From the NCBI GenBank assembly GCA_958295905.1, contig OY282382.1, positions 4,582,910-4,646,909 of the forward strand: DNA of 64,000 nt, written 5' to 3'. Under the pieces are notes generated by a model, which had not been told where the DNA came from, did not search any database, and worked only from the letters and a program-made list of their open reading frames with translations. Source of the DNA: an uncultured Vicinamibacterales bacterium (GTDB lineage: Bacteria > Acidobacteriota > Vicinamibacteria > Vicinamibacterales > UBA8438). Within the stretch, counting starts at the first letter, position 1. Each line of letters begins with the position of its first letter. Below, in pieces: positions 29,996 to 64,000 of this stretch. A program made the position numbers and the translations under genes.

Positions 29996-30071
29996 CTTTC
30001 GAGGCGCATCACGCGGGGCCGCGGCCGCACGCCGGTCCGACGCTTCCCCCCTGGCCCCGGGGCCATCGAAG

Positions 30072-31385: not shown

Positions 31386-31531
31386 GGCGTCGGACCCGCG
31401 GCTTCGCGCCGGAGCGCACCGCCTCGAAACGCACCGCCTCGACAACGCATCGCGTCAGACGCTCGAGACCGCGATCGATAAAGGACTGGCCGGCGTCAGT
31501 CAGAGGAAGCGCAGCCGGCAGTTCGCTTTTT

Positions 31532-35220: not shown

Positions 35221-35393
35221 CAGGACCATCCCACGCGCCGCCACCGCCGTGCGCAGGCGGAATCGCGGCGGGTCCTGGGGCTCCGGACGGGCGGAATCGT
35301 GGGTCTCACGCGGCGCCGGCCGGTCGGCAAGACGGTGGCGACCCCTCGAATCGGGGGCGGGCCGTCACGCGCAGTCAGCGTGGGATGCCGCTG
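35221..35393 (-). mobile_element. family-1 MITE copy D1
   Basis: CAGGACCATCCCACGCG...CAGCGTGGGATGCCGCTG, flanked by CGCCCAGGGG on both sides (35211-35220 and 35394-35403). Confidence 0.8.
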
Positions 35394-35403
35394 CGCCCAG
35401 GGG

Positions 35404-35578
35404 CAGGACCATCCCACGCGCCGCCACCGCCGTACGCAGGCGGAATCGCGGCGGGTCCTGCCGGGCTCCGGACGGGCGGAATCGTGGGTCTCACGCGGCA
35501 CCGACCGGTCGACTGGACGGTGGCGACCCCTCGAATCGGGGGCGGGCCGTCACGCGCAGTCAGCGTGGGATGCCGCTG
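35404..35578 (-). mobile_element. family-1 MITE copy D2 (tandem with D1)
   Basis: It has the same termini as D1. It is preceded by CGCCCAGGGG and followed by CCCAGGGG. Confidence 0.8.
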
Positions 35579-35743
35579 CCCAGGGGAGGGCCCCCCGTGC
35601 AGTTGTCGAGTGCGGCCGGGAGAGCGCGGACCGCGGCCCTTGCGGACGGATACCGACGGATCCCCCCCGCCCCGCCGACGGATACCCTTATAATGAGGCG
35701 GGTGTTCGCGGCAATGCCGCGCGGCACCCGTGGAGGCGTTCCG

Positions 35744-35971
35744 ATGTTCGACTCTCTCGTTCGGCCGTCGACCGTCGCGGGCATCGATCGCGGCCACGCA
35801 GACGCGATCGCGGATGCCGTCCGGCAGGCTGCCGACCCTGGCGACCACGTGACCACCGACCGGTTCACCGCCGGGCTCGCGGCGCTGGAGCTTCGGCTGA
35901 TCAAGTGGATCATCGGCACCGGGGTCGCAGTCACCGGCGCCGTGGTCGGCCTGATACGGCTGCTCGATTAG
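35744..35971 (+). CDS. small C-terminally membrane-anchored protein (75 aa)
   Basis: TGGAGG lies 7 nt upstream of the ATG. The protein is MFDSLVRPST...TDRFTAGLAALELRLIKWIIGTGVAVTGAVVGLIRLLD, a coiled segment plus one TM helix. The pattern resembles DUF1640-type small proteins. Confidence 0.5.
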   Translation: MFDSLVRPSTVAGIDRGHADAIADAVRQAADPGDHVTTDRFTAGLAALELRLIKWIIGTGVAVTGAVVGLIRLLD

Positions 35972-36009
35972 CGGATATCCCGGCGACTCGGACCATCCGG
36001 GAGGTGCCG

Positions 36010-43470: not shown

Positions 43471-43506
43471 CCGGACGGAGCCGGCCCGTCAATTCCGCAC
43501 GAGTGG

Positions 43507-44709
43507 TCAACATTCGCTGGAAGCCACCGATCGTACGCGGCGCCACGGAATCAACCGGGCGCCGGTGCGCTGCTGGAGCTCCTCACCCCCATAGACCACC
43601 GCCGCGTCACATGCCGGGCGCAGGTCCTGCAGATGCGGGCGCACGCGTTTCAAACCGTCCATCAGACTCGCGGACGCCGTGGCGGAGGACTTGGCCTCGA
43701 CGAGCGTCAGGGCGTCCCGCTCGTCAATCACCAGGTCGAGCTCGGCGCCGTTGCGGTCCCGGTAGAACGACAAGCCCCCACTCTCGCCGTGGTGGGTGCG
43801 GTGCTTCAGCACCTCGGAGACCACCCAGGTCTCGAACAGGGCTCCGCGCAGCGGATGGGCGCGAAGTTGCCGCGGCTCCCGGATGCCCAACAGCCAACAC
43901 GCCAGGCCTGTGTCGTGAAAGTACAGCTTGGGCATCTTCACCAGCCGCTTGCGCTGCTTCATGCTGAACGCCGGCAGGTGGAACGCGATGAAGCTCGCCT
44001 CCAGAATGCTGAACCACGTCTTGGCGGTCGGCTGCGAGATGCCGCAGTCGTCGGCCAGGGAGGCGTAGTTGAGCAGTTGCGCGCTCCGGCCGGCGCACAG
44101 CTCCACGAAGCGCTGGAACGCCGTCAGATCGCCGACGCCGCCGATCCTGCGCACGTCCCGCTCGATGTAGGTGGCGACGTAGGAACGAAGCCAGTCCGCC
44201 GGATTGTGACCCCGATCGAAGATAACGGGATAGCCGCCGCTGAAGAGGGCCTCGTCGAGATCGACGGGACGCCGGGGGAAGCGGCTGATCTCGTCCCAGG
44301 ACAAGGGCAGAAGCCGATGCATCGCGGTTCTGCCCGCCAACGACTGGCTGATCGATTCCAGCCGCGTGAAGTTCTGCGACCCGCTCAGGATCCAACGCCC
44401 CGGGGCCCGGTCGGCGTCGATGATGCCCTGCAGGTACGACAGCAGATCCGGGGCGCGCTGCACCTCGTCGAGGATGGCGCCGTGCCGGAACTGCGCGAGG
44501 AACGCCTTCGGGTCCTCCGCCGCAAACGCCCGTTCGTCCGGCGCCTCCAGGGATCGATAGGGATGGTCCGGGAACACCGCCCGGCACAGCGTCGTCTTCC
44601 CGCTCTGCCGCGGACCCGTGAGCGTGATGGACGGGGCCCACGCAGCCGCGCGCTCCAGCACCGCCGCCAAATCTCGATGGATCACGGGCACATCCTCGCA
44701 CAGTGCCAC
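43507..44709 (-). CDS. AAA+ ATPase with DUF4143 domain (AAA_14/DUF4143 family)
   Basis: Motifs are Walker A (LTGPRQSGKTT), ILDEVQRAPDL, LSGSQNF, FQRFVELCAGRSAQLLNYASLADDCGISQPTAKTWFSILEASFI and KLYFHDTGL. Confidence 0.8.
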   Translation of the reverse strand: MALCEDVPVIHRDLAAVLERAAAWAPSITLTGPRQSGKTTLCRAVFPDHPYRSLEAPDERAFAAEDPKAFLAQFRHGAILDEVQRAPDLLSYLQGIIDADRAPGRWILSGSQNFTRLESISQSLAGRTAMHRLLPLSWDEISRFPRRPVDLDEALFSGGYPVIFDRGHNPADWLRSYVATYIERDVRRIGGVGDLTAFQRFVELCAGRSAQLLNYASLADDCGISQPTAKTWFSILEASFIAFHLPAFSMKQRKRLVKMPKLYFHDTGLACWLLGIREPRQLRAHPLRGALFETWVVSEVLKHRTHHGESGGLSFYRDRNGAELDLVIDERDALTLVEAKSSATASASLMDGLKRVRPHLQDLRPACDAAVVYGGEELQQRTGARLIPWRRVRSVASSEC

Positions 44710-50366: not shown

Positions 50367-50738
50367 AGCCGGCGGAGCGGGCGCATGCCCTCGACGGCGT
50401 CCCGGCGCGGCTCAACCGTGCCGATCGGTCCGGACGGCGGGCGGAAACGCGGCCGCGTCTGGCGGCGCCGGCCACGCCGGTGCTACCATGTATGCGCCCG
50501 GGACGCGAACGTTGCGGGTGCTCCTGTCGGCGTTTCTCACACCGTCGGCGCAACCGCCGGTGGCCGCGGCGCGGGAGCCGAGCGATGTCCCGCCGCCAGG
50601 ACCGCGGGTAGGCGGGAAGATTCCAAACTTCGCCGCGCGTACTCCCCAGACGTGTCGCGATCACGCATGGCGGGTTCCGATCCGGTGCGCCCCCGCCGGG
50701 ACGCACCGGCGCCCCGGGAGAGCGGCCCGCGCCAGAGG

Positions 50739-51674
50739 ATGTCCCGCACGATGACCACCCGCGCCGCACTGCCCCGCCGTTGGTTCCTGCTGCCGTTGCT
50801 GATCGGCCTCGCGGCCGGCCCCGCCCTCGCGCAGCCCTACCTGAGCAGCGGCCTGGGAGCGCACGTGGCCGCACCGCTGGAGGTGGCCGGGCAGAGCAAC
50901 GACAAGGCCAGCTACTGCGACGAGTACTTCAACCCGCATTACGCGCTCATCGAGCCGTGCCTGCGGCCCGGCGGCGGAATGTGGCGGCTGGATTTCGGCG
51001 GCGCGGCCGGGGTCCACGCCGAGACGGCTGTCGGCTATCGGATCGGCCGCCGATTTCGCGTCGAAGGCGAGTACGTCTTCCGATCCTCGGGGTACGATCA
51101 GTTCGCCCCCGCCATGTCCGCCGACCGAACCATCTTCGGCAAGCTCGACGGCGAGATCGTGCGGGCTGAAGAGTACGTCGGCGACCTGAACGCCCACGGC
51201 GCCTTCGTGAACGCCTACGTCGACTTCCCCAACGCCAGCCGGTTCACGCCGTACGCCGGGGCCGGGGCCGGGGTCGGCTTCCACGAGATGGACTACGGCG
51301 CCGTCTGGGCCCGCAACCTCGACCCCGCCCAGATCACGTCGGGCCGCGAACTGAACATTCCCGACTACGAACGGTTCCGGAGCACCCTCGCCGGCACCGT
51401 AACCACGCACCACGATCAGTTCACCGCCGCGCTCGCCGGCTGGCAGGTCCTCGCCGGCGGCGACGTCGCGCTCTCGGACGCGGTGTCGCTCGGCGTCAAG
51501 GCGCGATGGGTCCGTTTCCGCCGGCTGGCGATCGAGGAACCGCGCGGCTGGGATCAGCTTCGGAGCCACGCTTCCAATATCCGGCTCGACGGCAGCGAGC
51601 CGGCGACGTTCCGCCTCGAGACCGACGACGTCGGATGGATCGGCGTCAACCTGGTGCTGAAGTACACCTTCTGA
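50739..51674 (+). CDS. outer-membrane beta-barrel protein
   Basis: It has a signal peptide (RRWFLLPLLIGLAAGPALAQ), alternating beta-strand pattern and a C-terminal ...NLVLKYTF. It is a paralogue of 52146-53042. Confidence 0.75.
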   Translation: MSRTMTTRAALPRRWFLLPLLIGLAAGPALAQPYLSSGLGAHVAAPLEVAGQSNDKASYCDEYFNPHYALIEPCLRPGGGMWRLDFGGAAGVHAETAVGYRIGRRFRVEGEYVFRSSGYDQFAPAMSADRTIFGKLDGEIVRAEEYVGDLNAHGAFVNAYVDFPNASRFTPYAGAGAGVGFHEMDYGAVWARNLDPAQITSGRELNIPDYERFRSTLAGTVTTHHDQFTAALAGWQVLAGGDVALSDAVSLGVKARWVRFRRLAIEEPRGWDQLRSHASNIRLDGSEPATFRLETDDVGWIGVNLVLKYTF

Positions 51675-52145: not shown

Positions 52146-53042
52146 TCAGAACCGGTACTTCAAGCCGAGACTCACGCTCCAGAACCTGCTGTCGTCCGTC
52201 GTCATCCGATAGAGGACGTCTTCGCCGCGGCCGACGTTCGACTCATGGCTGCGCAGTTGATCCCAGAGCGTCGGCTCGCTCATGAACCCGCCGAAATCCG
52301 CCCAGCGGAACTTCACGCCCAGCGTGACCCGCTCGCCGAGCCGGCGATCCACGCCCGCCAGCACTTGATAGCCGGCAACGACATCGGTCAGCCGGGCGTC
52401 GCCGATGGAGATCGAGCCGGCGATTTTGGCGCGCAGCAGCGGATCGACGAACGTCGTGATCCGCTCGGGATCGTCGTTGCGCTTCCACATGGAACCGTAG
52501 TCGAGGGTCGCCCGTTCCACGCCGACTCCGGCGCCGACGTACGGCGTCCAGGACGAAGACACGGTCGCGAAGTCGTAATACACATTCGCGAAGACGCCGT
52601 GCGCCTGCAGGTCGTCGACACGGCCGACCGCCAGCTCGATTTCCTGCTCCTGCTTGTCGATCGTCACGTCGTCGAAGATGCCCGTGTCCCTGCGATCGTT
52701 GTAGGCCGTGACCCGGTGGGAATACTCACCTTCGAGCCTGATCCCCCCCCAGTCGTATCCGAGCGCGAACCCCGACCGGATGCCGCGGCCGCCGCCGAAC
52801 TGGTTCGTCCATGACGTCAGCGGCGGCGTGACGTCGCATTCGGCGCCCGCCTCCACCCCGAGCGGGTTGATGATCAGATCGCACTTGGTGCCCCAGTCGT
52901 TGTCCACCCCTTCTACCCCGAGCGACGGCGCAACCGCCATTCCCAGGTCCATCTGGATGTACGGCCCCGTCTGGGCCCCGGCTTCGCCGACCCACCCCGT
53001 CAGGACCATGACAATCGCCGGAAATCCCAGTCGCCCACGCAT
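52146..53042 (-). CDS. outer-membrane beta-barrel protein (paralogue)
   Basis: It has a signal peptide (MRGRLGFPAIVMVLTGWVGEAGAQ) and shares blocks with the neighbour (HGVFANVYYDF, TPYVGAGVGV, GYQVLAGVD, WDQLRSHESN). It ends ...LGLKYRF. Confidence 0.8.
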   Translation of the reverse strand: MRGRLGFPAIVMVLTGWVGEAGAQTGPYIQMDLGMAVAPSLGVEGVDNDWGTKCDLIINPLGVEAGAECDVTPPLTSWTNQFGGGRGIRSGFALGYDWGGIRLEGEYSHRVTAYNDRRDTGIFDDVTIDKQEQEIELAVGRVDDLQAHGVFANVYYDFATVSSSWTPYVGAGVGVERATLDYGSMWKRNDDPERITTFVDPLLRAKIAGSISIGDARLTDVVAGYQVLAGVDRRLGERVTLGVKFRWADFGGFMSEPTLWDQLRSHESNVGRGEDVLYRMTTDDSRFWSVSLGLKYRF

Positions 53043-54906: not shown

Positions 54907-57120
54907 CTATCCATCCACGATCTCGACGACCACCGGTCCCGTCGGCCGCGCCATGCACGCCAGTCGATGGGTTTCGGGATCCACGGCGCAGATCTCCTCG
55001 AGCGTCTCCCGTTCCGCGCCGCTCATCGGGTTCAGGCGCTCTGCGCCGGAAACGATCCGGACCGGATCGCTGCCGCAGATTCCAGCGTGGCAGTCGGCTG
55101 ATATTTCGACGCCGCCGGCCTCGGCGGCATCGCAGATGGTCTGGCCCCTCTTGAACGGACACGGCCGGCTGCGGTTCCTGAACGTCACGGTCAGCGCTTC
55201 CGCCAGCGGCTCGCCGGCCGCGGGCAGGTTGACCGTCCGGGAATCGACCCGCCGGGACTCGGAAACCGCTTCCGCGCCGAGAAGAGAAAACCGAAGCGTC
55301 TGACGACCGACCCGCACGACGTCACCGTCCTGGAGCCCGCATGAACCGTCGACCTTGAGATAAGTCCCGTTCACGCTGTTGAGGTCCCGCACGAACAGGC
55401 TTGCGCCGACGGCCACGATAGACGCGTGCCGGCGGGACAGCGACAGGTCGTCGGGCGCCAACGTGATGTCCGGCGCGTTGCGCCCGATGACGTGCGTGCC
55501 TTCCGAGATCTGGTGACGCCCGACCAGCCGTCCGTCCGGGTCATGGTGGGCCAGGAGCCACGGGTTGCGCATCGAGCCCAGGATCAGCCACTGGCGTCCG
55601 AGCCGCGCGACGGTCCCCGGCTCGACGGCGCGCTCGCGGCCATCGGTGAGATGCAGGAACACGCCGGCCGACGAATCTTCGCCGCGCACGCGGTATGCCG
55701 TCCCGTCCGGCACGATCGCCGCGTGGCGATCGACGAGTTCGGAATCGTCTTCGAAGCGGATGTCGCCGCCGCGTCTGCCGATGGTCGTGGCGCGGTCGGA
55801 ATGCAGCACGAACTGTTCGGCTTCGACCGCGCCGTCGAGCAACCGCGTGAGCGCCGCCGGCGGCGCGCCGCCGGTCGCCGACGGCGTGGCGACGGTGGCA
55901 CCCACGAAATCGAGAGCGACACGGATTTCAGCCTTCCCCGCCAGCCGCTGCGCAATCACGTCGGCCACCTTGACGCCGTCGATCAACGACGCCTTGATGT
56001 TGCCGCGGTGCGTGACCTTGCGGAACCCGGACACGTCGCCGTCGAAGTCCCCGCACTCGAGATAGGCCGGGTTGAGCGTGTCTCCGATCACGTAGACGTT
56101 CGGTTGCCGGCACTCCAGCAGAGCATTGAGCGGGATCGCCTTGCGGACGTGCGGTCCGCCGGCGACCTGAAAGATGCCCATGCCGTTCATCAGCTTCCAG
56201 TCGATCTCCTGGCCGATGCAGGCGATGACCCGCGAAGCCTCGAACTCCAGGACGGTCCTTGCGACCGGCGCCTCGGGCTCACGCTCGTGCCCGACCCGTA
56301 CGCGCAGGACCTTGCCCGAACCGGACTCCACCACCTCGCCCGCCTCACTGCCGGCCAGGAATCGCACGTTGCGGTTGACCGAGACCGCCCGCGCCATCGG
56401 CGCCTCCAGTGCGCGCGGCGCTTTCGGCATCTCTCGTCCGCGGTGCGACCAGTACACGCCGGTGTCGTCGCCGGCGGCGGCCTTCGCATCCGATATCGCG
56501 ATGACCGCTTCGACCGCCGACACGCCGCCGCCGATGACGCAGGCGGAGGCGCCGACGTAACGGCTCGCGGTCGAAAACCGATGACTGATCGCTCGAACGT
56601 CGCCCGGCACGTCGAGCCACCGCGGCATGCCGGCGCCCAGCGCCAGCACGACGTGCCCCGCGCTCAGGACGCCGTTCTGTCCGGTCCGGTGATTCCGCAC
56701 GAGCGCGCGCCAGACGCGGTCGCCGCCCGGCTCCAATCCGACGAGTTCGACGCCGGTCCGCACCGGCACGCCATGCCGGCGGTACAGCGCCTTCCAGGCG
56801 TCGCACAGATCGCGGGGGCGAACGTCCGTGAAGAAATGCAACTGTTCGATCAGCTCGCCGCCCTTCGGAAACCCCATCTGCTTGCCGGCGCCGAAGTCGG
56901 GCTTGATCGGCTTGTCCTTGTCATAGTCGCGTATCCGTTTCAGGATGTCGTCCAGCTCGATCACGAGGGCCGACAGCCCCAGCTCTCTCGCCCGAAAGGC
57001 GGCTCCCGTTCCCGCCGGGCCGCCACCGACGATCAGCAGGTCGAGCAGGTCGGACGACTCGGCCTCGGCGTCGAGTCGGAGGCGGCCGTCAGGCGGGACT
57101 TCCAATGGCTCGTCGGTCAT
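54907..57120 (-). CDS. FAD/NAD(P) pyridine-nucleotide-disulfide-type oxidoreductase fused to two FHA domains and a C-terminal 2Fe-2S-ferredoxin-like domain
   Basis: LLIVGGGPAGTG, VIGGGVSAVE and VYVIGDT mark the oxidoreductase. FHA1 is TTIGRRGGDIRFEDDSELVDRHAAI. FHA2 is HVIGRNAPDITLAPDDLSLSRRHASIV...VRDLNSVNGTY. The tail has CHAGICGSD...LAC, a C-X4-C-X2-D...C pattern in which the third Cys of the plant-type motif is replaced by Asp. Confidence 0.8.
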   Translation of the reverse strand: MTDEPLEVPPDGRLRLDAEAESSDLLDLLIVGGGPAGTGAAFRARELGLSALVIELDDILKRIRDYDKDKPIKPDFGAGKQMGFPKGGELIEQLHFFTDVRPRDLCDAWKALYRRHGVPVRTGVELVGLEPGGDRVWRALVRNHRTGQNGVLSAGHVVLALGAGMPRWLDVPGDVRAISHRFSTASRYVGASACVIGGGVSAVEAVIAISDAKAAAGDDTGVYWSHRGREMPKAPRALEAPMARAVSVNRNVRFLAGSEAGEVVESGSGKVLRVRVGHEREPEAPVARTVLEFEASRVIACIGQEIDWKLMNGMGIFQVAGGPHVRKAIPLNALLECRQPNVYVIGDTLNPAYLECGDFDGDVSGFRKVTHRGNIKASLIDGVKVADVIAQRLAGKAEIRVALDFVGATVATPSATGGAPPAALTRLLDGAVEAEQFVLHSDRATTIGRRGGDIRFEDDSELVDRHAAIVPDGTAYRVRGEDSSAGVFLHLTDGRERAVEPGTVARLGRQWLILGSMRNPWLLAHHDPDGRLVGRHQISEGTHVIGRNAPDITLAPDDLSLSRRHASIVAVGASLFVRDLNSVNGTYLKVDGSCGLQDGDVVRVGRQTLRFSLLGAEAVSESRRVDSRTVNLPAAGEPLAEALTVTFRNRSRPCPFKRGQTICDAAEAGGVEISADCHAGICGSDPVRIVSGAERLNPMSGAERETLEEICAVDPETHRLACMARPTGPVVVEIVDG

Positions 57121-57138
57121 GTGGATCTCACGCCGGGG

Positions 57139-58722
57139 TCACGGCAGCAGCCGGAACCGAGCGCCGCGGTCCGGGTGGAAGACGTGGCACGTCACGCAGC
57201 GGTCGGACACCGCATCGGGCCGGTGGCACTGCCGGCAGACGGCCACCGTGGGCACGTTCTGGATGGCCGCGTTGTCCAGCCGCGGATCGACCGCCTCGTC
57301 GGCCCCCAGATAGTCGCTGAAGGGAATCCGGGTATGGCAGTCCAGGCAGCCGCGCTGAATGACGTGGGCGCCGTGGTCGAACCCGGCGCGCCGAAGGACC
57401 CGCTGTTCCTGCCGCACCCGCCGGAGGGTGGCGCGTTCCACCGTGTGGCACAACGCGCACGGCTCTGCGACCTCGGCCGCGAAGCGGTCCATCTCGGCCA
57501 ACTGCCCGTCCGTCAACCGCGGGTCCCTGACGTTCAGTCGGAACCGCGTATCGTCGAGCGCCGTGTTCGGGTCGGCCATGCGCCGTTCGAGGGCGCCCAT
57601 CGACTGGTCGAACTCCAGCAGGGCCGCCTGCACCCATTCCTCGCCGCGCCCGCGGAGGTCATCCGCGTGGTTCCTCAACTCGTCCAGGGCCTCGTCGTAC
57701 AGCTCCCGCCGGTCGGCCCGGGCGACGTCCGCCGAGGTAACGAGCAGGTCGGCGAGCCCGCGGGACGGGTAGATGGCGCGCCGCAGGCGCCTCAGGTTGT
57801 GCAGCACCCAGGGGTCCGCGTGGACGATCCCGGTCTTCACCACGAACCCGTCGTCCACATCGAAACCGGCTGCGCTCATGCGGGCCGCCCATCCCCCGCC
57901 CGGCGCCGTCCGCGCGCGCACCGTTTCGAGCGTCTCCACCCCGAGCGTCAGTTCCACGCCGTCGCCCGAGGCGCGAACCACCGGCGTACGGGGCGGCTGG
58001 ATCGGCAGCTCGGCCGACTCGTCGTGCGGCCCCAGATGGCAGTCTCCGCACGCCGCCTCGAAACGGATGGGCTGAAACCCCCGGGCGTCGGCCGTCGCCT
58101 CGTGGCAGGCCAGACACGCCGCCTCCACGTTCTCGCCGCCGCGGTCGTCGAGCACCCGATCGACGTGCCTGATGTGGGTGAAGGCCAGCCCGGCGTCGTC
58201 GGGGACGCCCCCGGCCGCGAACGCGAACTCCGGATGGTCGCCGTGGAACCCGCCGATCCCGTGACAACCCGCGCACCGGGCATCCGGTGACGCGGCCCGC
58301 GGGTCCGCCCGCCGTCCCTCGTGTTCGCCGTGGCACGCGGCGCACCCTGTCTCGTTCTCGCGGCCGAAAGCCCGCGTCCGATCGCCGGAGGCATAGACGT
58401 AGTGCGCGTTGAACGAATAGGCGCCGATGGCGTCGTCGAACCGATCGTGGCACGCCGAACACGCGCTCGAACGCACGCCGCCGAACGGCGTGTGGCACGC
58501 CGCGCAGCGCCCCTCCAGCGCCGCGTGCGCCGACGACAGCGGTCCGTTGGCCACCAGATCGCCGGCACCGAGTCCCAGATCGACGGTCAGAAGGCCCGCG
58601 GCGAGCGCGGCCGGCACCGCGCCGATCCAGACGATGCGGTTGCGGCTGCGCGGACGGACGTACCCCGCGGAGACCGGAAGCCGCGCATCTCCGAACGCTC
58701 CCTTGCCGTCGTCGTCAGCCAT
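57139..58722 (-). CDS. decahaem c-type cytochrome
   Basis: It has an N-terminal anchor (IVWIGAVPAALAAGLLTV). The ten CXXCH motifs are CAACH, CSACH, CAACH, CAGCH, CLACH, CGDCH, CALCH, CLDCH, CRQCH and CVTCH. The start ATG 58722 lies 4 nt after the upstream stop. Confidence 0.85.
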   Translation of the reverse strand: MADDDGKGAFGDARLPVSAGYVRPRSRNRIVWIGAVPAALAAGLLTVDLGLGAGDLVANGPLSSAHAALEGRCAACHTPFGGVRSSACSACHDRFDDAIGAYSFNAHYVYASGDRTRAFGRENETGCAACHGEHEGRRADPRAASPDARCAGCHGIGGFHGDHPEFAFAAGGVPDDAGLAFTHIRHVDRVLDDRGGENVEAACLACHEATADARGFQPIRFEAACGDCHLGPHDESAELPIQPPRTPVVRASGDGVELTLGVETLETVRARTAPGGGWAARMSAAGFDVDDGFVVKTGIVHADPWVLHNLRRLRRAIYPSRGLADLLVTSADVARADRRELYDEALDELRNHADDLRGRGEEWVQAALLEFDQSMGALERRMADPNTALDDTRFRLNVRDPRLTDGQLAEMDRFAAEVAEPCALCHTVERATLRRVRQEQRVLRRAGFDHGAHVIQRGCLDCHTRIPFSDYLGADEAVDPRLDNAAIQNVPTVAVCRQCHRPDAVSDRCVTCHVFHPDRGARFRLLP

Positions 58723-58726
58723 GATC

Positions 58727-59554
58727 TCAGTAGTAGAAGACCGCGAACACGTGAAACCCCACGAGCACCGCCAACAGAACCACCGGCGGCACGTGCAGGC
58801 GCAGCCACCAGCGCAGCGCACCCTGCAAGGTGTAGTGGGCGTCCATCTCGAACTTGGCGCGGACCAGCACCCGCAGCTCGTCCAGGCGTCGGGCGTCGTC
58901 TTCGTCCAGCAACCGCTTCAGGTAGTCGAAACGCCGCATGCACGACTGAACGCCGCCGGTGACGTCGAAGAAATAGACCAACGACACGGTGGGACCGGCC
59001 AGCACGGGAGCCAGGTCCGCGTCATGGAACTTCCTGACGGACTCGCCGCCGGAGGCCGCCAGCACCTCGACCCTCTTCCGCACCGCTTCCACGAGATCCG
59101 GAATCCGGTCGTAGTGAACCTCGGTCGACAGCCCCGAGGTCAGCGCGGGCGGTATCCACTTCTGAATGAAGACGCCGGCCAGCCCCGTACCGACGACCCA
59201 CAGGCTCGACGCCCACAGGCCCCACGCCAGCGCCCCCTGGGGCGAAGCGGCGCCGGTGTGCGCCGCGAGCAGGAACAGGAAGAGCACGCCGCCGTAGACG
59301 TGCGCCTGCACCCAGTGGTGGAGGGCGCCCGGTCCCCGCCGCGGCATTCGCCGCCGCGCGCCGTAGGCCAGCGCGACCAACAGCAGCGCGGTCGCTGCGA
59401 CGCCGTAGGCGACCGTCCAGGCGCCGTCCCCGCCCGGGACGCCGGGGACGCGCCGGACGAGCGGCGCCGCCAGCGAGAGCGCCGCGCCGGCCAGAAAGAC
59501 GCGCCACCAGCCGGCCGAAACGGCGGTGCGGGGCGAGAACAACCGGCGCATCAT
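58727..59554 (-). CDS. polytopic membrane protein with conserved His pairs (DUF4405/cytochrome-b-like)
   Basis: It has about 5-6 TM helices, with HHWVQAHVYGGVLFLFLLAAHTG, and ends HVFAVFYY. It is homologous to the C-terminal membrane domain of 31747-33750. The ATGATGA sequence overlaps the upstream stop. Confidence 0.7.
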   Translation of the reverse strand: MMRRLFSPRTAVSAGWWRVFLAGAALSLAAPLVRRVPGVPGGDGAWTVAYGVAATALLLVALAYGARRRMPRRGPGALHHWVQAHVYGGVLFLFLLAAHTGAASPQGALAWGLWASSLWVVGTGLAGVFIQKWIPPALTSGLSTEVHYDRIPDLVEAVRKRVEVLAASGGESVRKFHDADLAPVLAGPTVSLVYFFDVTGGVQSCMRRFDYLKRLLDEDDARRLDELRVLVRAKFEMDAHYTLQGALRWWLRLHVPPVVLLAVLVGFHVFAVFYY

Positions 59555-61164
59555 CGTCCGTCCGACCGTTGGAGCGCCCGGAACTCCTCGACGGAGCCGA
59601 CGCGAAAGGCGCAGTGATGGGGACAGTTCCGCACGCACGCCGGCCCGGCCGGCGAGGCGTAACAGAGATCGCACTTGCTGGCGACGGCGCGCGGCGTCCC
59701 GCGGAGAGCCTTCGGCAACGCGTCGTCCGGCCACGCCCCGCCGGTGTCGTGCATCACGATCGCGTCGTACGGGCAGTTGTCGTGGCAGGTGGCGCAACCG
59801 ATGCAGATCTCGTCCTTGATCTCCACGACGTCACCCACGTCCGCGCGCCGGATGGCCCCGGTCGGGCAGCCGACGAGGCACACCGGGTCACGGCAGTGAT
59901 AGCAGGACCGCGCGATCAGCAGATTGTCGTACCGGTCTCCTTCGCGCACGAACCGCGGCCGCCCCCCGTGCGTGTCGGCGCACGCGCGCACGCAGTCGTC
60001 GCAACGCGTGCACCGGTCGAGGTCCATCACCAGGATGCTGCTGCCCTCCACCAGTCCCTTGTCGAGGGCGAACTCGACGAACTCGGACGATCCCGGATCG
60101 GCCAGCCGCCCCCCGGTCTCCTTGATCCGGTCGACCGCCTGCCGCCAGAGCTCCCGCCCGCCGGCGGGGGCGGCGCGCAGCACATCGAACAGATCGCTCC
60201 GGGCGATGCGGACCAGCTCTCCGTACCCCACCGACGACACCGTGAAACGGGCGCGGTCCAGGCCGTCGACGAGCAGCTCGACCTCGCCCACGGTCATGCC
60301 CTTCGACAGGTAGGTGACGGTGACGTGCCCCGCCCCCATCCTGCGCGACAGCCGCAGGAACCCCGACCGCACCAGATACAGCGCGTCGGCCGCCGCCCCT
60401 TCCTCGAAGACGACTTCGCCCGGGTCGCACGGCACCAGCTCGACGCGCTGCGCGAGCTCGGCGAGCAGCGGCCGGGGACACTCGCGGAACACCGGACAGG
60501 CCCCCAACTGGGACAACAGCGCGCGCTCCCGGTAGACCGCTTCGATCTTCCGCCTGAAGGCGCTCGACCGCCGCTTCAACAGACGCAGCGCCGGCACGCG
60601 GATCTGCACGACCCGGCACGCGGTGAGCGCCCTGACCGTCACCGACTGCGGCCAGCCGTTCAGCGCGCCGATCTCGCCGAAGAACTCGCCCGGTCCGAGC
60701 GTCTGCACGTCGGAATCGCCGCCCAGGTCGAAGTCCATCGCCGAGAGCAGCATCGTCCCTCCGCCGCCCCCCCGTTCGCTCTGCCGATGGTGGACGGTCG
60801 CGGCCGACGCCCCGGCGGGGTTCTCGGTCCCGGCCGAGTCGGCGGCGGCCGAGACCGATTCAGGATCGACGTACTTCGACAGATAGGCCGCCGCCTTGCC
60901 TTCGACCAGGAAGAACGCGACGTCGACGTGGCTGCCCTCCTCGAACAGCACCGCCCCTTTTCGCCATACCGCGACCGAGACGTCGGGGCTGATGGTTTCG
61001 AGGACCTGGTCCTTGAAACCCTCGAACACCTCATAGCCCTTCAACTCGCCGGCGCTCAAGCGCTGGGAGAGGTGCTCGATGCCGCTCTCGGCGCCGTACA
61101 GGCTCCAGCGGTCGCGATGCTGCTCGTCACGGCGAAGGAGGGTCCGGCCGGTCAGGTCGGTCAT
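59551..61164 (-). CDS. protein with two cyclic-nucleotide-binding-like domains and a C-terminal multi-[4Fe-4S] ferredoxin domain
   Basis: GEFFGEIGALNGWPQSVTVRA is cNMP-like, but the phosphate-binding Arg is replaced by Gln. A second domain has GMTVGEVELL...RFTVSS. Then come CTRCDDCVRAC, CYHCRDPVCLVGCP, CIGCATCHDNCP and CDLC...CVRNCP. Confidence 0.85.
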   Translation of the reverse strand: MTDLTGRTLLRRDEQHRDRWSLYGAESGIEHLSQRLSAGELKGYEVFEGFKDQVLETISPDVSVAVWRKGAVLFEEGSHVDVAFFLVEGKAAAYLSKYVDPESVSAAADSAGTENPAGASAATVHHRQSERGGGGGTMLLSAMDFDLGGDSDVQTLGPGEFFGEIGALNGWPQSVTVRALTACRVVQIRVPALRLLKRRSSAFRRKIEAVYRERALLSQLGACPVFRECPRPLLAELAQRVELVPCDPGEVVFEEGAAADALYLVRSGFLRLSRRMGAGHVTVTYLSKGMTVGEVELLVDGLDRARFTVSSVGYGELVRIARSDLFDVLRAAPAGGRELWRQAVDRIKETGGRLADPGSSEFVEFALDKGLVEGSSILVMDLDRCTRCDDCVRACADTHGGRPRFVREGDRYDNLLIARSCYHCRDPVCLVGCPTGAIRRADVGDVVEIKDEICIGCATCHDNCPYDAIVMHDTGGAWPDDALPKALRGTPRAVASKCDLCYASPAGPACVRNCPHHCAFRVGSVEEFRALQRSDGR

Positions 61165-61171
61165 GGCGTGG

Positions 61172-63400
61172 TCACCCGGACTCTCCCCGCAACACGCGAT
61201 ACAGGCGCTCGATCCGCTCGCGAAGCGCGTCGAGCATCTCTTCGACCGATGCGTCGGGATTCGGACGCAACGCGTCCAGCCCCGGATCGTCGACGGGAGC
61301 CGGCGCGCCGCGGGGACTCCGGCGGCTTCCCGGGCCGCTAGGCGGCGGGCCCGAGCGCGGCGGGCGCACCGGGGGGACCGGTGCGGGCGACACTTCCGCC
61401 GGAGCCGGGCGCGCGCCGGTGCCCGGCCCCGGGGAGGAGGCCGGCGGCGCGGTCACCGGCGCGGCCGGCGTCGCAGACGGGGTCGGCGGGGCCGGCGGCG
61501 CGGGGGCCGGCACGGGACCGCGGGAGGCGACGGCTTCCGCGTAGGCGGCGGCGAGCGCCGCGCGGTCGACGGGTCGGGTGTCGCGGCCGAAGTCGGCCCC
61601 CCAATGCACGACGTCGCCGATGCGCGCGCCCACGTCGAAGGCGTCGCCCGCCGGATGGCCGGCGCCGATCAACCCCGGGTCGGTGACGTAGTGACAGCCG
61701 GCGCAGGTGGCGGCCTGCACCTCCGGATCGCGCAGGTCCGTCAATCCCAGCGCCAACGCGCCGGCATAGCCGACGGTCTCGTGCGGTTCGAGGTAATCCG
61801 CCCCCGCCCCGTGGCAGCGCTGGCAGCCGACGCCGGCACGCACCTTCCGCGACGGCGCGGACACCGGCGTCCCGTGACACCACATGCAGATGCGGTCCCC
61901 CCGCGCCATGTCCGCGGCGGCCACCCCGTAGGCCTGCGCGATCTCCACGTGCCGGGGCTCGTTCGCGCGGAACGGCCTCGCGGCCGTCGAATGCGGATCG
62001 CTCCGCCACCACCGCTCCTGGGCGTTGTGGCAGCGCCCGCAAGGGACCTTCACGAAGCCGTGCGCGGGCGGGTCGCGCCACCGCGGGCGCGTGAGCGTCT
62101 CCGTCCGCGCCGGCACCGGGCGCGGCAGCGACGCCGCGACGGGCTCGGGAGCCGCGGCGGCCGGCCCGGCCGCGACCGGCGGCGGCGACGCGGCCGCGGG
62201 CCGCGGGGCCGCCCCGCCATCGCGCGGATCCGAGGCCGGGGGCGCCGCGCCGCCCGCCACGGCGTCCCCGCTCGCCGGCAGCGACACGGCCGGCAGGCCG
62301 GCAATCTCGGTAACCCGCGCCGGGGCCCCGGCGTCGGTGACCGCCGCGTCCCACAACGGGTCCAGCGCGGCCAGCCCGGCCCCGTCGATGGCGGCAATGA
62401 ACCGCCTCGTCGACGCCTGCATGAGGTCGGCGGCCCCGCGCAGCCGGGCGGGGTCGCCGATCGACACGTCGATCGCGTCCCACGCCGCGATGATCCCGCG
62501 CAGCGGGGCCACGTCCACGCGGTCGGCGATTTCGAGCAACTCGTCGACGGCGGCGCCCGCGCGGTCGCTCATCGCCAGGAAGTACAGCTCGTCCCGCCGC
62601 GTCGCCGCGGCCAGGCCCCGTACGGCGTACTCCAGGTCGAGCGCGCGGCCGACGACGTACATCTTCCGCTTCCAGTCCCGCGGCCGCTCGGCGTTGGTCC
62701 GCCCGTCGGCCGTCTTGTACGACTCCAGGAAGTTGTGCCGTATGCGGTCGCTCCAGGCCACGATCTCGAAGTCGCTACCGGTCGAGTGGCCGCCGCGGTT
62801 CACGAGGTCCTCGTTGGGCACGGTGTGGCATCCGAAACAATTGGCGGCGACGTCGTACAAATCCGAGGGACGCCGCATGCCGGCCGCCCGGCTGTCCGCA
62901 ATCCGCTGCGTCCGGTGCTCCGGGGTCTCGAGCCGCGCGGCCCTCTGGAAGTCCGCCTCGGCCACGCCGTAGTCGTTGTGCGTCGACACCCAGTCGCGCG
63001 CGGCTCCGTGGCACGACTCGCAGGTAACGCCGGCGCCGGCCCGCAGTTCGCCGCGCCGCAGCACCGGCGTGTAATGGCAGCTCAGACAGGCGGGGGTCGC
63101 CTCGTCCGTGCCGCGCTTGATCAGCCGCAGACCCAGGAGTCGATAGATCTCCTTGGCGCGGTCCCGCCGGTGCAGCGTGTCGAATCCGGCCGCGTGCGCC
63201 GTCGTCTCCCACACCTCGAACTCGGCCGCGTGGCACTCGCCGCACCGCTCGGGAAGCACGATGCGCTCGGCCGTCGCGGCGAGGGCGGCCCGGAGATCGA
63301 GGTGCGCCGCGCCGCCGGCGGGCGGTTGCGGCCAAGCGGAACCGGCCGCGAAGAGCAGGACGGACGCCGCGAGCGCGGCGATTCTCGTCATGACGGTCAT
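61172..63400 (-). CDS. octahaem c-type cytochrome with a Pro/Ala-rich linker and tail
   Basis: It has a signal peptide (MTVMTRIAALAASVLLFAAGSAWPQ). The eight CXXCH motifs are CGECH, CLSCH, CESCH, CFGCH, CGRCH, CMWCH, CQRCH and CAGCH. Confidence 0.85.
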   Translation of the reverse strand: MTVMTRIAALAASVLLFAAGSAWPQPPAGGAAHLDLRAALAATAERIVLPERCGECHAAEFEVWETTAHAAGFDTLHRRDRAKEIYRLLGLRLIKRGTDEATPACLSCHYTPVLRRGELRAGAGVTCESCHGAARDWVSTHNDYGVAEADFQRAARLETPEHRTQRIADSRAAGMRRPSDLYDVAANCFGCHTVPNEDLVNRGGHSTGSDFEIVAWSDRIRHNFLESYKTADGRTNAERPRDWKRKMYVVGRALDLEYAVRGLAAATRRDELYFLAMSDRAGAAVDELLEIADRVDVAPLRGIIAAWDAIDVSIGDPARLRGAADLMQASTRRFIAAIDGAGLAALDPLWDAAVTDAGAPARVTEIAGLPAVSLPASGDAVAGGAAPPASDPRDGGAAPRPAAASPPPVAAGPAAAAPEPVAASLPRPVPARTETLTRPRWRDPPAHGFVKVPCGRCHNAQERWWRSDPHSTAARPFRANEPRHVEIAQAYGVAAADMARGDRICMWCHGTPVSAPSRKVRAGVGCQRCHGAGADYLEPHETVGYAGALALGLTDLRDPEVQAATCAGCHYVTDPGLIGAGHPAGDAFDVGARIGDVVHWGADFGRDTRPVDRAALAAAYAEAVASRGPVPAPAPPAPPTPSATPAAPVTAPPASSPGPGTGARPAPAEVSPAPVPPVRPPRSGPPPSGPGSRRSPRGAPAPVDDPGLDALRPNPDASVEEMLDALRERIERLYRVLRGESG

Positions 63401-63412
63401 GCCTCCCGCCGC

Positions 63413-64000
63413 TCAGAACTTCACCACGAACTCGGCCCGGCCGCCGACGCGCCGGCGGCTCGCGCCCCCCGCGCCGTCGAGCATCGAGAGGCCTCGCAGG
63501 GTCTCGCGGGCGACGAAGGCGTCGAGCACGAGCACGCCGCGCCGGCCCACCGCCGCCTGGTAACGCACCCCGCCGGCGACCGCATGCGGTTCGCACACCA
63601 CCGACACGGTCGCGCACGCGGCCGTCGAGTATCGCGCGGCCCCCTCGAACAGCAGTTGCCGGCGCGTGCCGGCCAAGAACTTCTGGTGGCCGAACGCGCC
63701 GCCCGCCACGTCGCGGGCGGCCGGCGACAGCGCGCCCGCCCCCACGCCGGGCACGTCGCCGAGGCCCGAGCCGGCGAAGAGGATGCCGGCGCGGGCGAGC
63801 GGCCCCGGAACCAGCACGTCGAGGGCTGCGGGCCGGTACGCGCCGTGGGCGTAGAAGCCGGTGGCGTAGAAGAAGTCCTTTCCGCGGTGCGGCGTCCACG
63901 ACAGCTCGGAGAAGACCAGCGCGCCGCGGCTCATCGGATTGGCGATGCCGGCCGCCGCCGCCGCGGCGGCCGGCGCGTCGCCGAACGGCATCGAGGCGAC
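63413..64000 (-). CDS. outer-membrane beta-barrel (porin-like) protein, C-terminal part (gene runs off the right edge)
   Basis: It has alternating beta-strand character and a terminal ...GGRAEFVVKF*. The stop lies 12 nt upstream of the octahaem cytochrome start. Confidence 0.6.
   Translation of the reverse strand, partial: VASMPFGDAPAAAAAAAGIANPMSRGALVFSELSWTPHRGKDFFYATGFYAHGAYRPAALDVLVPGPLARAGILFAGSGLGDVPGVGAGALSPAARDVAGGAFGHQKFLAGTRRQLLFEGAARYSTAACATVSVVCEPHAVAGGVRYQAAVGRRGVLVLDAFVARETLRGLSMLDGAGGASRRRVGGRAEFVVKF

Follow-up and report, generated by a model that had tools for sequence, protein, structure and literature searches.

A stretch of DNA of 64,000 nucleotides from an uncultured Vicinamibacterales bacterium (the window) was found to hold most of a ptd-type redox operon. 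The cluster is a protein-phosphorylation-linked variant of the ptd system, so its core is not wholly new. Six co-directional minus-strand genes, five complete and one (B) truncated at the window edge, follow one another at re-measured spacings of 12, 7, -4, 4 and 18 nt, in agreement with a sequence-only reading that had joined six genes at -4 to 18 nt. The operon does not end at coordinate 64000: genes for a free-standing FHA protein and a Ser/Thr kinase follow. We consider, with moderate confidence, that the operon encodes a quinone-independent path by which electrons of NAD(P)H are exported to the outer membrane under the control of Ser/Thr phosphorylation. The genes, domains and motifs described in the sequence-only reading were largely confirmed, while its porin ORF, operon end, first FHA domain and type of ferredoxin had to be revised.

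Table. Genes and domains of the ptd-type operon in the window.
Feature	Residues	Coordinates	Strand	Description
B (partial)		63413..64000	-	last ~196 codons of a 1121-aa fusion; PtdA-like pentahaem + PtdB-like outer-membrane beta-barrel
O		61172..63400	-	742-aa periplasmic octahaem cytochrome; 8 CXXCH; Cytochrome_C554 4.1e-23 in two stretches
N		59551..61164	-	537-aa, predicted cytoplasmic, PtdE-like; two cNMP-binding-like domains + HycB/HydN-type domain, four [4Fe-4S] motifs
N, first cNMP-like domain	~55-185	60610..61002	-	phosphate-binding cassette FGEIGALNGWPQSVTV; Gln173 replaces Arg
N, four-cluster ferredoxin domain	378-530	59575..60033	-	four Cys motifs read from sequence
M		58727..59554	-	275-aa, PtdF-like; five predicted TM helices + cytoplasmic helical insert; His H85, H99, H254, H268
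D		57139..58722	-	527-aa decahaem cytochrome, PtdG-like; one N-terminal membrane helix; 10 CXXCH
R		54907..57120	-	737-aa cytoplasmic flavoprotein; Pfam Pyr_redox_2 1.2e-21, FHA 1.2e-14, Fer2 1.8e-6
R, FAD + NAD(P)-binding Rossmann folds	27-349	56074..57042	-	GGGPAG, GGGxSAxE invariant
R, first FHA domain	440-510	55591..55803	-	degenerate here; Yop-YscD_cpl 6.5e-4, sub-threshold
R, canonical FHA domain	544-605	55306..55491	-	Pfam FHA 54.9 bits
R, plant-type [2Fe-2S] ferredoxin domain	653-727	54940..55164	-	motif C677-x4-C682-x2-D685...C722

The ptdABCDEFG operon was named in a 2024 preprint, which described it in silico and called its function "completely unknown"; it encodes a pentahaem protein with a beta-sandwich (PtdA), the porin PtdB, an FAD/NAD(P) oxidoreductase (PtdC), a tetrahaem protein (PtdD), a cNMP and 4Fe-4S protein (PtdE), a membrane protein (PtdF) and a decahaem protein (PtdG), with marine Proteobacteria, Nitrospirales and Planctomycetes as hosts (bioRxiv 10.1101/2023.11.21.568154). 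The window operon has the same component list in the same order. Two loci with the exact ptd layout, L087 and L089, encode proteins that were 55-63% (PtdA), 38-40% (PtdB), 36-43% (PtdD), 34-36% (PtdE), 27-35% (PtdF) and ~26% (PtdG, the 10-haem proteins compared with D) identical to those of the window. Compared with ptd, the window operon has a single fused gene for PtdA and PtdB, an octahaem protein that is a doubled PtdD, and a Gln at the phosphate-binding Arg of PtdE. In place of PtdC stands a TrxR-type flavoprotein with two FHA domains that is not homologous to it except in the Fer2 part, with its Asp ligand; the set also gains a free-standing FHA protein and a Ser/Thr kinase. Hosts of the window subfamily include Acidobacteriota, Bacteroidota and relatives, Gemmatimonadota and Myxococcota, in contrast to those of the preprint.

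We compared 81 loci, all from metagenome-assembled genomes (MAGs) and many ending at contig edges. The order O-N-M-D was kept throughout, in about ten phyla (Acidobacteriota, Rhodothermales and other Bacteroidota, Ignavibacteria, KSB1, Calditrichia, Gemmatimonadota, Myxococcota and Zixibacteria among the hosts), and because of this recurrence the gene arrangement is far beyond chance. N, M and D were found together in 76 loci, and the counts for the other genes were 59 (O), 53 (R), 50 (FHA protein) and 32 (B); 27 of 35 kinase matches fell no more than 1.5 kb from the edge of the cluster. The genes, syntenic in relatives, form one conserved unit. N and M form one ORF in 10 of the 76 loci, also in distant representatives, and these fusions, seen in KSB1 and Calditrichia, put the N-terminus of M in the cytoplasm. 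Just upstream of M in Ca. Nitrohelix, Fer2, FAD_binding_6, NAD_binding_1, cNMP and Fer4 make up one 864-aa protein, and an FNR-type gene (NAD_binding_1 and Fer2) lies within the cluster of Gammaproteobacteria and Phycisphaerales. Most variants thus pair N-M with a reductase of the NAD(P)H type that carries a [2Fe-2S] domain, a part supplied here by R; KSB1-type loci, with R absent within 10 kb, are the exception. These FNR-reductase/Fe-S and Fe-S/membrane fusions back the earlier proposal that the components run from the cytoplasm through the inner membrane and periplasm to the outer membrane.

R stands in for PtdC. Its FAD/NAD(P) part is TrxR/YpdA-like and lacks a CxxC; two FHA domains follow, the first degenerate and the second canonical, and then a [2Fe-2S] Fer2 domain (28.2 bits; cut-off, 21). 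Only this last domain is shared with the FNR-type PtdC-like protein of L089. PDB sequence matches were to TrxR-like 7a76 and YpdA/Bdr 7a7b, a W-S-[YH]-R-G motif was conserved in 38 homologues, and the motifs of the protein predict the use of NAD(P)H. Two FHA domains had been assigned to R: the second is canonical (G546, R547, S562, R563 and N584 invariant; H565 in 36/38), but the first is degenerate in the window copy, with Val at the pThr-contacting Ser463 position (Ser in 24/38 homologues), whereas the corresponding domain of homologues is clearly FHA (1e-12 to 9e-8). The C-X4-C-X2-D...C motif at the end of R is present as read, and belongs to a plant-type [2Fe-2S] Fer2 domain; it is not peculiar to this copy, since the three Cys are invariant and the Asp occurs in 37 of the 38 homologues.

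Matches in Pfam (cNMP_binding 3.3e-28 over two stretches; Fer4_11 and related models), NCBIfam (AegA, DmsB and HydN for the ferredoxin domain) and the PDB (HycB3 7qv7 at 1.4e-15; tandem CNB domains of PKA-R) bore out the two cNMP-like domains and the poly-[4Fe-4S] domain recognised earlier in N. No signal peptide was visible in its sequence, and its Fe-S part is like HycB and HydN, which are electron-wire subunits of the cytoplasm; both points support a cytoplasmic location. A Gln does occupy the position of the cyclic-phosphate Arg in the first cNMP-like domain, but it cannot be regarded as an oddity of a single copy, since 62 of 63 subfamily members have it, with W-P-Q-S conserved. In ptd relatives further afield the canonical PRT[AS]T is retained, and loss of the Arg from the phosphate-binding cassette is confined to the FHA/kinase-linked subfamily.

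The membrane protein M had no match in Pfam or NCBIfam, nor did Foldseek and a PDB sequence profile match it to known folds or structures; its AF2 model had a pLDDT of 88. Its four His form two i/i+14 pairs on two predicted TM helices, a spacing also found in cytochrome b of bc1, and were invariant in 46 close and 148 distant homologues, as had been anticipated for haem ligands. Because of these four invariant His, we regard M as a putative di-haem b subunit, its pattern of His suggesting that haem may be bound.

The counts of eight and ten haem motifs given earlier for the periplasmic cytochromes held. O consists of two c554-like tetrahaem modules, with a helical region and Pro/Ala-rich linkers between them, and is therefore a doubled PtdD; it matches PDB 1bvb at 1e-6, each of its halves matches the L087 and L089 tetrahaem proteins, and its N-terminus is signal-like. 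D matches Pfam Cytochrome_C7 and c3_2 and has a hydrophobic stretch (residues 29-55) preceded by RPRSRNR, and 65 of 70 homologues also have 10 CXXCH.

The porin-like protein of the sequence-only reading is indeed a barrel, but not a stand-alone one. Contig L001, ~98% identical to the window across the overlap, supplies the full B ORF, in which the barrel is the C-terminal ~450 aa and the N-terminal half is a pentahaem cytochrome (5 CXXCH; PDB 5ze8 at 5e-11). Cytochrome and barrel share a single ORF in Vicinamibacterales and in one locus from Myxococcota, and are adjoining genes elsewhere; the barrel thus always has a cytochrome fused to it or next to it, and is not an unrelated porin. The AF2 model of B has about 18 long strands (residues 677-1120), the C-terminus reads ...VVKF, and a Foldseek search with the barrel model found AlgE (7e-11), MOMP and OprD-type barrels. 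A barrel of ~18 strands is too narrow to sheath a multihaem cytochrome. No significant MtrB/PioB-type match was obtained with Pfam, NCBIfam or Foldseek, no surface cytochrome is encoded in the cluster, and we rejected the Mtr/Pcc-type conduit whose logic had been seen in these genes. MtrCAB, PioAB and Pcc have in common with the window operon the overall idea of multihaem cytochromes with an outer-membrane barrel, but the operon lacks a 20-26-strand sheath, an inserted MtrA-like decahaem protein, a surface lipoprotein cytochrome and a significant sequence match to them. Cyc2 of Fe(II) oxidisers resembles B in carrying a cytochrome domain and a beta-barrel in one outer-membrane polypeptide. Its cytochrome domain is monohaem and its barrel has about 16 strands, whereas in B a ~620-aa pentahaem domain stands ahead of an 18-strand barrel, and the two parts are separate in most phyla. 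The N-terminal domain of Cyc2 has been proposed to plug its own barrel (PMC5566968). The earlier interpretation therefore stands in part: the conserved unit and its layout are supported, but not the Mtr/Pcc type, the substitutions as oddities or a wholly new system.

We propose that electrons would pass from NAD(P)H to FAD and on to the Asp-ligated [2Fe-2S] domain, all on R, and would then be relayed by the four [4Fe-4S] clusters of N. M, with its cytoplasmic helical insert docked to N, could carry them across the inner membrane through two bis-His haems b. The periplasm would be crossed by membrane-anchored D and by O with its long Pro/Ala linkers, and electrons would arrive at the pentahaem domain of B, tethered to the 18-strand barrel. 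The final step would most likely be the reduction of an extracellular acceptor, or of a small solute or shuttle passing through the barrel. The cofactors, contacts and direction of this path are what we infer from sequence features. Several points count against export: KSB1-type loci lack R, the modelled barrel is too narrow for an Mtr-like inserted cytochrome, with no surface cytochrome encoded, and the identity of the pentahaem domain between phyla (55-70%) is more suggestive of catalysis than of a wire.

That unusually high conservation would fit a chain, fed by NAD(P)H, which ends at a catalytic pentahaem domain while the barrel imports a soluble substrate (a metal chelate, an oxyanion such as selenite or tellurite, or a nitrogen oxide) and no electrons leave the cell. 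We consider this possible but clearly less probable than export. The barrel resembles ~18-strand substrate channels (AlgE, OprD/OccK, chitoporin), its even strand number would place the fused cytochrome on the periplasmic side by general OMP topology, and the authors of the ptd preprint likewise raise a role in the nitrogen cycle (bioRxiv 10.1101/2023.11.21.568154). The extHIJKL(MNOPQS) cluster of Geobacter sulfurreducens also has a porin-like barrel gene beside a pentahaem cytochrome (PMC6148476, PMC5877670), and the pentahaem family of B includes T. tepidum c552, ExtKL and GSU2801 (PMC11976967). Loss of the porin ExtI, whose gene adjoins that of ExtKL, lowers selenite and tellurite reduction (PMC5877670), but a strain with only extHIJKL partly reduced Fe(III) and Mn(IV) oxides (PMC6148476). 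The ext cluster, too, has deca-/dodecahaem cytochromes and an inner-membrane redox module; its module is, however, a quinol-linked Rieske/cytochrome b in place of our flavoprotein/Fe-S chain and new four-His protein, and the window operon lacks the rhodanese lipoprotein ExtH and selenocysteine. Against catalysis, neither an open-coordination haem nor a catalytic motif could be recognised in the pentahaem domain, where 11 conserved non-motif His exceed the need of five bis-His haems, and the 23 haems of the whole chain are long merely for feeding a periplasmic enzyme.

Electrons might instead be taken up from an extracellular or periplasmic donor and pass through the cytochromes, M, N and R to NAD(P)+ or a ferredoxin-like pool, which we regard as improbable. 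Hmc, Tmc and DsrMKJOP of sulfate reducers, which carry electrons inward, are similarly built of periplasmic multihaem cytochromes and, as in NarGHI, a cytoplasmic Fe-S subunit docked on a two-haem-b membrane subunit (the haems of M being putative), and weak NCBIfam matches to DsrJ and DsrO were obtained. M is, however, unrelated to NarI-type cytochrome b in sequence or predicted fold, and on the cytoplasmic side it is partnered by a polyferredoxin that is HycB-like and has cNMP-like domains, not by an HdrD/CCG protein; the modules on that side are reductases of the NAD(P)H type rather than HdrD/CCG-type acceptor enzymes. Lithoautotrophic nitrite oxidisers carry ptd genes, and the Fe(II) oxidiser Ferrigenium straubiae expresses a triad, alike by description alone, of a cytosolic [4Fe-4S] protein, a five-TM protein that InterPro does not match and a multihaem cytochrome with a single TM helix; here too the redox machinery bears an FHA domain, although on the nine-haem cytochrome itself, unlike in the window operon (bioRxiv 10.64898/2026.01.22.701106). 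Inward movement would oppose the membrane potential, with the NAD(P)+ couple strongly uphill from Fe(II) or nitrite, and no proton-coupling module (NrfD, Nuo-like, Rnf-like) is present in the cluster. It is very unlikely that the haems and clusters merely sense periplasmic or extracellular redox state for the FHA, kinase and cNMP-like modules without bulk flux: sensor-type domains are dense (two cNMP-like, up to four FHA per cluster, a linked Ser/Thr kinase) and a CHASE2-cyclase gene adjoins one gammaproteobacterial cluster, but the conserved parts form an unbroken chain from the reductase through four [4Fe-4S] clusters and 23 haems to the barrel, which fits flux and is far more hardware than in any known redox sensor.

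Export from NAD(P)H, which the membrane potential would favour, thus remains our preferred reading. No evidence of a quinone site was found in the window operon. The chain would bypass the quinone pool and therefore resemble a much extended NADPH-oxidase/ferric-reductase (NOX/FRE) arrangement, in which an NAD(P)H-flavin module reduces two stacked bis-His haems across the membrane under phosphorylation control; the operon has no ferric-reductase-domain match, M has five TM helices against six, and Fe-S relays and a periplasm-spanning cytochrome chain are added. A further point against export is that respiratory Fe(III) reduction is unlikely in the aerobic nitrite oxidisers that have ptd clusters, including the Ca. 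Nitrohelix locus, and in the Fe(II) oxidiser with a similar triad. In the window subfamily, the linked kinase would make phosphothreonine sites, for which R and the stand-alone FHA protein would be the readers through their FHA domains, and this phosphorylation input may have replaced the cyclic-nucleotide input of the ancestral PtdE.

The genes of the operon are closely spaced (12, 7, -4, 4 and 18 nt) with a GC3 of 0.85-0.94, and domain searches, CXXCH counts and reading of the protein sequences bore out the domain content that had been described for the six products. These are B (a pentahaem cytochrome fused to a barrel), O (an octahaem cytochrome), N (a protein with cNMP-like and Fe-S domains), M (a four-histidine membrane protein), D (a decahaem cytochrome) and R (a flavoprotein). 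L001, a metagenome contig of 1.37 Mb, shares ~98% identity with the window where the two overlap and encodes an identical N. Upstream of B, it carries genes for a stand-alone FHA protein of 82 aa and a Ser/Thr kinase of 864 aa. Apart from the corrections described here, the association noticed in the sequence-only reading is genuine and not random: synteny and gene fusions led us to reject chance juxtaposition of the operon genes. Gene order, domains, conserved residues and fusions could be observed directly.

Features of the window and of related loci (positions without a prefix are those of the window)
Feature	Position	Strand	Length	Content
Operon	54907-64000	-		five complete genes and one truncated
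R		-	737 aa	Pyr_redox_2 + FHA + Fer2
D		-	527 aa	10 CXXCH; single N-terminal hydrophobic helix
M		-	275 aa	membrane protein; no family match
N		-	537 aa	two cNMP_binding stretches; four [4Fe-4S] motifs
O		-	742 aa	8 CXXCH across two c554-like modules
B, window fragment		-		C-terminal end ...VVKF
Second flavoprotein-cytochrome pairing	29040-33750	-		next three rows
Flavoprotein	31747-33750	-	667 aa	Pyr_redox_2 + BFD-like [2Fe-2S]
Multihaem cytochrome	30072-31445	-	457 aa
Tll0287-like protein	29040-29951	-
Molybdopterin oxidoreductase ORF	35299-38475	+		TAT signal at residues 253-271 of listed ORF
Transposase and ATPase genes	42081-44709	-		DDE transposase (DUF772/DDE_Tnp_1); AAA_14/DUF4143 ATPase
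GC-skew spike	20001-22000			+0.27
ORF at the spike	20153-22504	-
Small outer-membrane beta-barrel	50385-51674	+
Small outer-membrane beta-barrel	52146-53042	-
Barrel domain of B	L001:6900-7755			SWTPHH, GHQxF, CxPHAxAGG
Cyclase gene	L087:12302-14239	-		CHASE2 + guanylate/adenylate cyclase
Decahaem with Cys-rich segment	L086:3263-5587
Decahaem with Cys-rich segment	L087:8901-11405
Decahaem with Cys-rich segment	L089:9838-12477
KSB1 cluster	L076:3528-15675
Split decahaem gene	L005:10838-14206			~1.7-kb insertion
Split flavoprotein gene	L008:13490-17645			~1.9-kb insertion

The truncated gene had been read as a porin. A barrel does form its C-terminus, but the window ORF is only the last part of a 1121-aa protein that is complete in L001, with a signal-like N-terminus and five CXXCH motifs. 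The N-terminal half matched the pentahaem cytochrome c552 of Thermochromatium tepidum (5ze8; 5.4e-11) over both domains, and contains GHNVPTGF, the H-x-x-P-T-G motif of the C-terminal Ig-like domain. The CXXCH count, the motif and the similarity to 5ze8 place B in the pentahaem family in which T. tepidum c552 has been grouped with Geobacter ExtKL and GSU2801 (PMC11976967). In the predicted model, the C-terminal ~450 residues form ~18 long antiparallel strands (pLDDT mostly 70-93), whose best structural matches were the 18-strand AlgE (7e-11), Campylobacter MOMP, OprD/OccK and chitoporin. A Pfam search with five stand-alone barrel proteins gave no match for this barrel family at E <= 10. Conserved His/Cys motifs were seen in the barrel domain (alignment A4).

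The inner-membrane protein M gave no match in Pfam and NCBIfam scans, and its close relatives fall into 113 clusters, every one labelled 'hypothetical'. Searched as a profile against 1.84 billion representative proteins, M retrieved 3813 relatives at E <= 1e-3. As the earlier reading had anticipated, M keeps conserved histidines: H85, H99, H254 and H268 are invariant in 46 close homologues and, wherever the position is covered, in all of the best 148 distant representatives. Five helices long enough to cross the membrane and a helical insert of ~70 residues are seen in the AF2 model (pLDDT 88); one histidine pair (H85/H99) lies on helix 78-100 and the other (H254/H268) at the end of helix 218-274. 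Two such pairs on two transmembrane helices, with an i/i+14 (13-14 residue) spacing, are the pattern of di-haem cytochromes b (bc1 cytochrome b, NarI, FdnI, b561). The Arg-rich 2-3 loop, together with naturally occurring fusions that join N to the N-terminus of M, suggests that this terminus and the insert are cytoplasmic; H85 and H254 would therefore face the cytoplasm, and H99 and H268 the periplasm. Ten distant relatives gave only one sub-threshold match, to Ni_hydr_CYTB (0.005). Since the profile of M found nothing below E = 0.28 among PDB sequences, and the best Foldseek match of its model to the PDB had an E-value of 0.1, no known fold relative can be named. These sequence and fold searches showed no homology to a known cytochrome b family, and M appears to represent a previously unrecognised family, a putative di-haem protein without detectable relatives.

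We scanned species-representative genomes and kept 80 loci, all of them in metagenome-assembled genomes (MAGs), so that none of these loci points to a cultured or culturable host. Those closest to the window are from Vicinamibacterales (81-84% identity), and the other hosts include Thermoanaerobaculia, Holophagales, Rhodothermales and other Bacteroidota, Ignavibacteria, KSB1, Calditrichia, Gemmatimonadota, Myxococcota, Zixibacteria and further groups. Co-occurrence was counted by tblastn with eight L001 proteins in 81 loci, many of which are broken by contig ends. N and D adjoin M in 76/81, and the proposed co-occurrence of a cNMP/Fe-S protein with a multihaem cytochrome thus stood up in the gene neighbourhoods; the counts for the other parts were 59/81 for O, 53/81 for R, 50/81 for the FHA protein, 33/81 for the kinase and 32/81 for B. 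The commonest order was B-O-N-M-D-FHA-R. One Vicinamibacterales chromosome (OY761475.2; L002 and L003) carries two complete paralogous clusters ~3.6 Mb apart, with M proteins 81% and 84% identical to that of the window. The insertions splitting a decahaem gene in L005 and a flavoprotein gene in L008 may be insertion elements or assembly artefacts.

Several parts of the cluster are naturally fused. In Vicinamibacterales and one Myxococcota locus, a single ORF encodes both the pentahaem cytochrome and the barrel; otherwise neighbouring genes encode them, and the barrel then has its own signal peptide. N and M are a single ORF in 10/76 loci and in distant representatives, and in Ca. Nitrohelix one 864-aa protein directly upstream of M joins Fer2, FAD_binding_6, NAD_binding_1, cNMP and Fer4 domains. 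A variant in KSB1 keeps the N-M-D core with a kinase, and has a different barrel (DUF5777) and an LVIVD-repeat cytochrome. In L076 this cluster comprises a 1238-aa LVIVD-repeat cytochrome, a 337-aa c554-type cytochrome, an 825-aa N-M fusion at L076:8327-10804, a decahaem cytochrome, the Ser/Thr kinase and then the barrel, and no R-type flavoprotein was found within 10 kb of it. This variant marks the inner-membrane core as the constant module.

A gammaproteobacterial and a Phycisphaerales locus (L087 and L089) were informative about the wider family. Their genes encode, in order, a pentahaem cytochrome, a barrel (1e-126 to 1e-140 against the barrel HMM), a NAD_binding_1 + Fer2 protein, a c554-type tetrahaem cytochrome, N, M and a 10-haem cytochrome, exactly the ptdABCDEFG layout of a 2024 preprint, which named it from MAGs of marine oxygen-deficient zones (bioRxiv 10.1101/2023.11.21.568154). 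In that preprint the function is called 'completely unknown', with iron reduction or nitrogen cycling suggested, and PtdF is termed 'ferric reductase-like' (bioRxiv 10.1101/2023.11.21.568154). The name ptd occurred in no second paper in the literature searched. Identities of the window proteins to those of L087 and L089 were 55-63% (PtdA), 38-40% (PtdB), 34-36% (PtdE), 27-35% (PtdF) and ~26% (PtdG), and both halves of O are 36-43% identical to PtdD. The co-linear Ptd core of pentahaem cytochrome, porin, tetrahaem cytochrome, cNMP/4Fe-4S protein, membrane protein and decahaem cytochrome is therefore present. The window differs from it in that PtdA and PtdB are fused, giving the order B(=A+B)-O-N-M-D in both window and L001, and in that PtdD is doubled. 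Furthermore, the FNR-type PtdC gives way to a TrxR/YpdA-like flavoprotein with two FHA domains and an Asp-ligated [2Fe-2S] site. In L086, L087 and L089 the decahaem protein has a ~95-residue Cys-rich segment before the membrane helix, which is absent from D of the window and is a possible binding site for metal or Fe-S facing the cytoplasm.

The TrxR/YpdA-like flavin part of R lacks a CxxC motif. Pfam found Pyr_redox_2 in R instead of the FAD_binding_6 and NAD_binding_1 domains of an FNR-like PtdC, and alignment with the PtdC-like protein of L089 was limited to Fer2. Judged from its sequence, R is a functional replacement of the FNR-type PtdC and not its orthologue. Of the two FHA domains proposed for R, the second is canonical, with the phosphothreonine-binding G-R, S-x-x-H and N-G residues all conserved, but the first, canonical in homologues, is degenerate in the window's own copy. 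The ferredoxin-like tail was correctly read as having Asp in place of Cys: the third ligand departs from the C-x4-C-x2-C...C pattern of plant-type [2Fe-2S] ferredoxins in 37/38 homologues, and the domain scores above the Pfam cut-off nonetheless. Asp occupies the same [2Fe-2S] ligand position in E. coli SdhB.

The cNMP_binding fold match of N was strong (3.3e-28). The CxxCxxCxxxC(P) pattern of its four Cys motifs is that of the HycB/HydN/DmsB four-cluster ferredoxins, with matches to HycB3 (1.4e-15) and, in NCBIfam, to AegA, DmsB and HydN. The replacement by Gln of the Arg that binds the cyclic phosphate, reported earlier for the first cNMP-like domain, holds in 62/63 members (GWPQS at the PR[ST]A cassette), and no conserved Arg was found in the second domain among the aligned members. 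Canonical cAMP/cGMP sensing by N in the FHA/kinase-linked subfamily was rejected because the Arg is missing family-wide. All four wider ptd relatives examined keep it, as PRT[AS]T in three and as SRSAT in Ca. Nitrohelix. A cyclase gene adjoins the ptd cluster of L087, whose PtdE has the canonical Arg. The FHA/kinase-linked clusters are accompanied by a Ser/Thr kinase and a separate protein bearing either one FHA domain or two, and kinase matches are concentrated at the edges (27/35 within 1.5 kb). We infer that the regulatory input may have been swapped from cyclic nucleotide to phosphothreonine. The window operon is a new variant of the Ptd system, linked to protein phosphorylation and built around the M family.

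Other known systems fitted less well. The gene chain partly supports the conduit logic of the Mtr/Pcc type that had been proposed, but the system itself is not Mtr/Pcc-like: we rejected membership because the barrel has ~18 strands, compared with 20-26 in the MtrB/PioB/OmbB sheath, and because no family match was obtained. The match to the DmsE family (TIGR03508) reached only 21 bits against a cut-off of 192, and the cluster contains no further cytochrome gene and no surface lipoprotein cytochrome. Cyc2 is likewise a cytochrome-barrel fusion, with a monohaem N-terminal domain and ~16 strands, whereas B has a ~620-aa domain with five haems and ~18 strands, and its parts are separate genes in most phyla; this type was rejected. 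The rhodanese domain of ExtH in the ExtHIJKL cluster was not seen in L001, L082 or L084. A triad in Ferrigenium straubiae, of a [4Fe-4S] protein, a domainless five-TM protein and an FHA-bearing nonahaem cytochrome of unknown function, resembles N-M-D as judged from the published descriptions; according to its authors, no earlier report had linked FHA domains with multihaem cytochromes (bioRxiv 10.64898/2026.01.22.701106). A NOX/FRE ferric-reductase domain was rejected, as Ferric_reduct matched neither M nor ten distant relatives, and so was the Hmc/Tmc/Dsr type, with neither a CCG (HdrD-like) domain nor a NarI match in Pfam and NCBIfam.

Elsewhere in the window, we observed a second pairing of a flavoprotein with a cytochrome. 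The true start of the molybdopterin oxidoreductase is probably ~250 codons downstream of the listed one. The adjoining transposase and ATPase genes, in a region whose GC skew (-0.18) is the lowest found in the window, are likely a mobile element, and a sharp skew spike stands out from the about +/-0.05 seen elsewhere. Just downstream of the operon are two paralogous small barrels, also present in L001 as OMP_b-brl / Surface_Ag_2 types.

Functional statements on the cluster are deduced from sequence. Electrons would pass in R from NAD(P)H through FAD to [2Fe-2S], then to the four [4Fe-4S] clusters of N, the two putative haems b of M, the ten haems of D and the eight of O, and the chain would end at the five haems of B on the periplasmic face of the barrel. 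Outward flow is favoured, since the membrane potential works with electron export and against inward transfer to the NAD(P)+ couple, and since the cluster has no proton-coupling module. A barrel of 18 strands is too narrow to sheath a multihaem protein. In the last step, a small acceptor or shuttle may pass through the barrel, or the pentahaem domain may itself be a periplasmic reductase; the latter would agree with the 55-70% identity of this domain across phyla.

Vicinamibacterales, Gemmatimonadota, Rhodothermales and KSB1 are abundant, mostly uncultured groups of soil and sediment, and we know of no textbook electron-export system in them. To our knowledge, phosphothreonine control of respiratory-type redox chains is barely documented in bacteria. 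To the ptd gene list, the analysis adds the likely order of the electron path from natural gene fusions, the four invariant histidines of M as precise targets for mutagenesis, and a whole subfamily in which phosphothreonine control has probably replaced that by cyclic nucleotides. Running from an NAD(P)H-type flavoprotein to a barrel in the outer membrane, a conserved chain of this kind would let the hosts reduce external or periplasmic substrates, bypassing the quinone pool. A broader proposal, which we consider rather unlikely as it stands, is that Ptd-type clusters are a widespread, quinone-independent route of electron export from cytoplasmic NAD(P)H to the cell surface in diderms, a bacterial parallel to NADPH oxidases and ferric reductases that is based on a previously unrecognised di-haem membrane family (3813 representative clusters), in which soil and sediment lineages exchanged an ancestral cyclic-nucleotide switch for one of Ser/Thr kinase and FHA domains. 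If true, this could account for cases in which aerobic heterotrophs reduce extracellular Fe(III) or produce superoxide without known extracellular electron-transfer (EET) genes.
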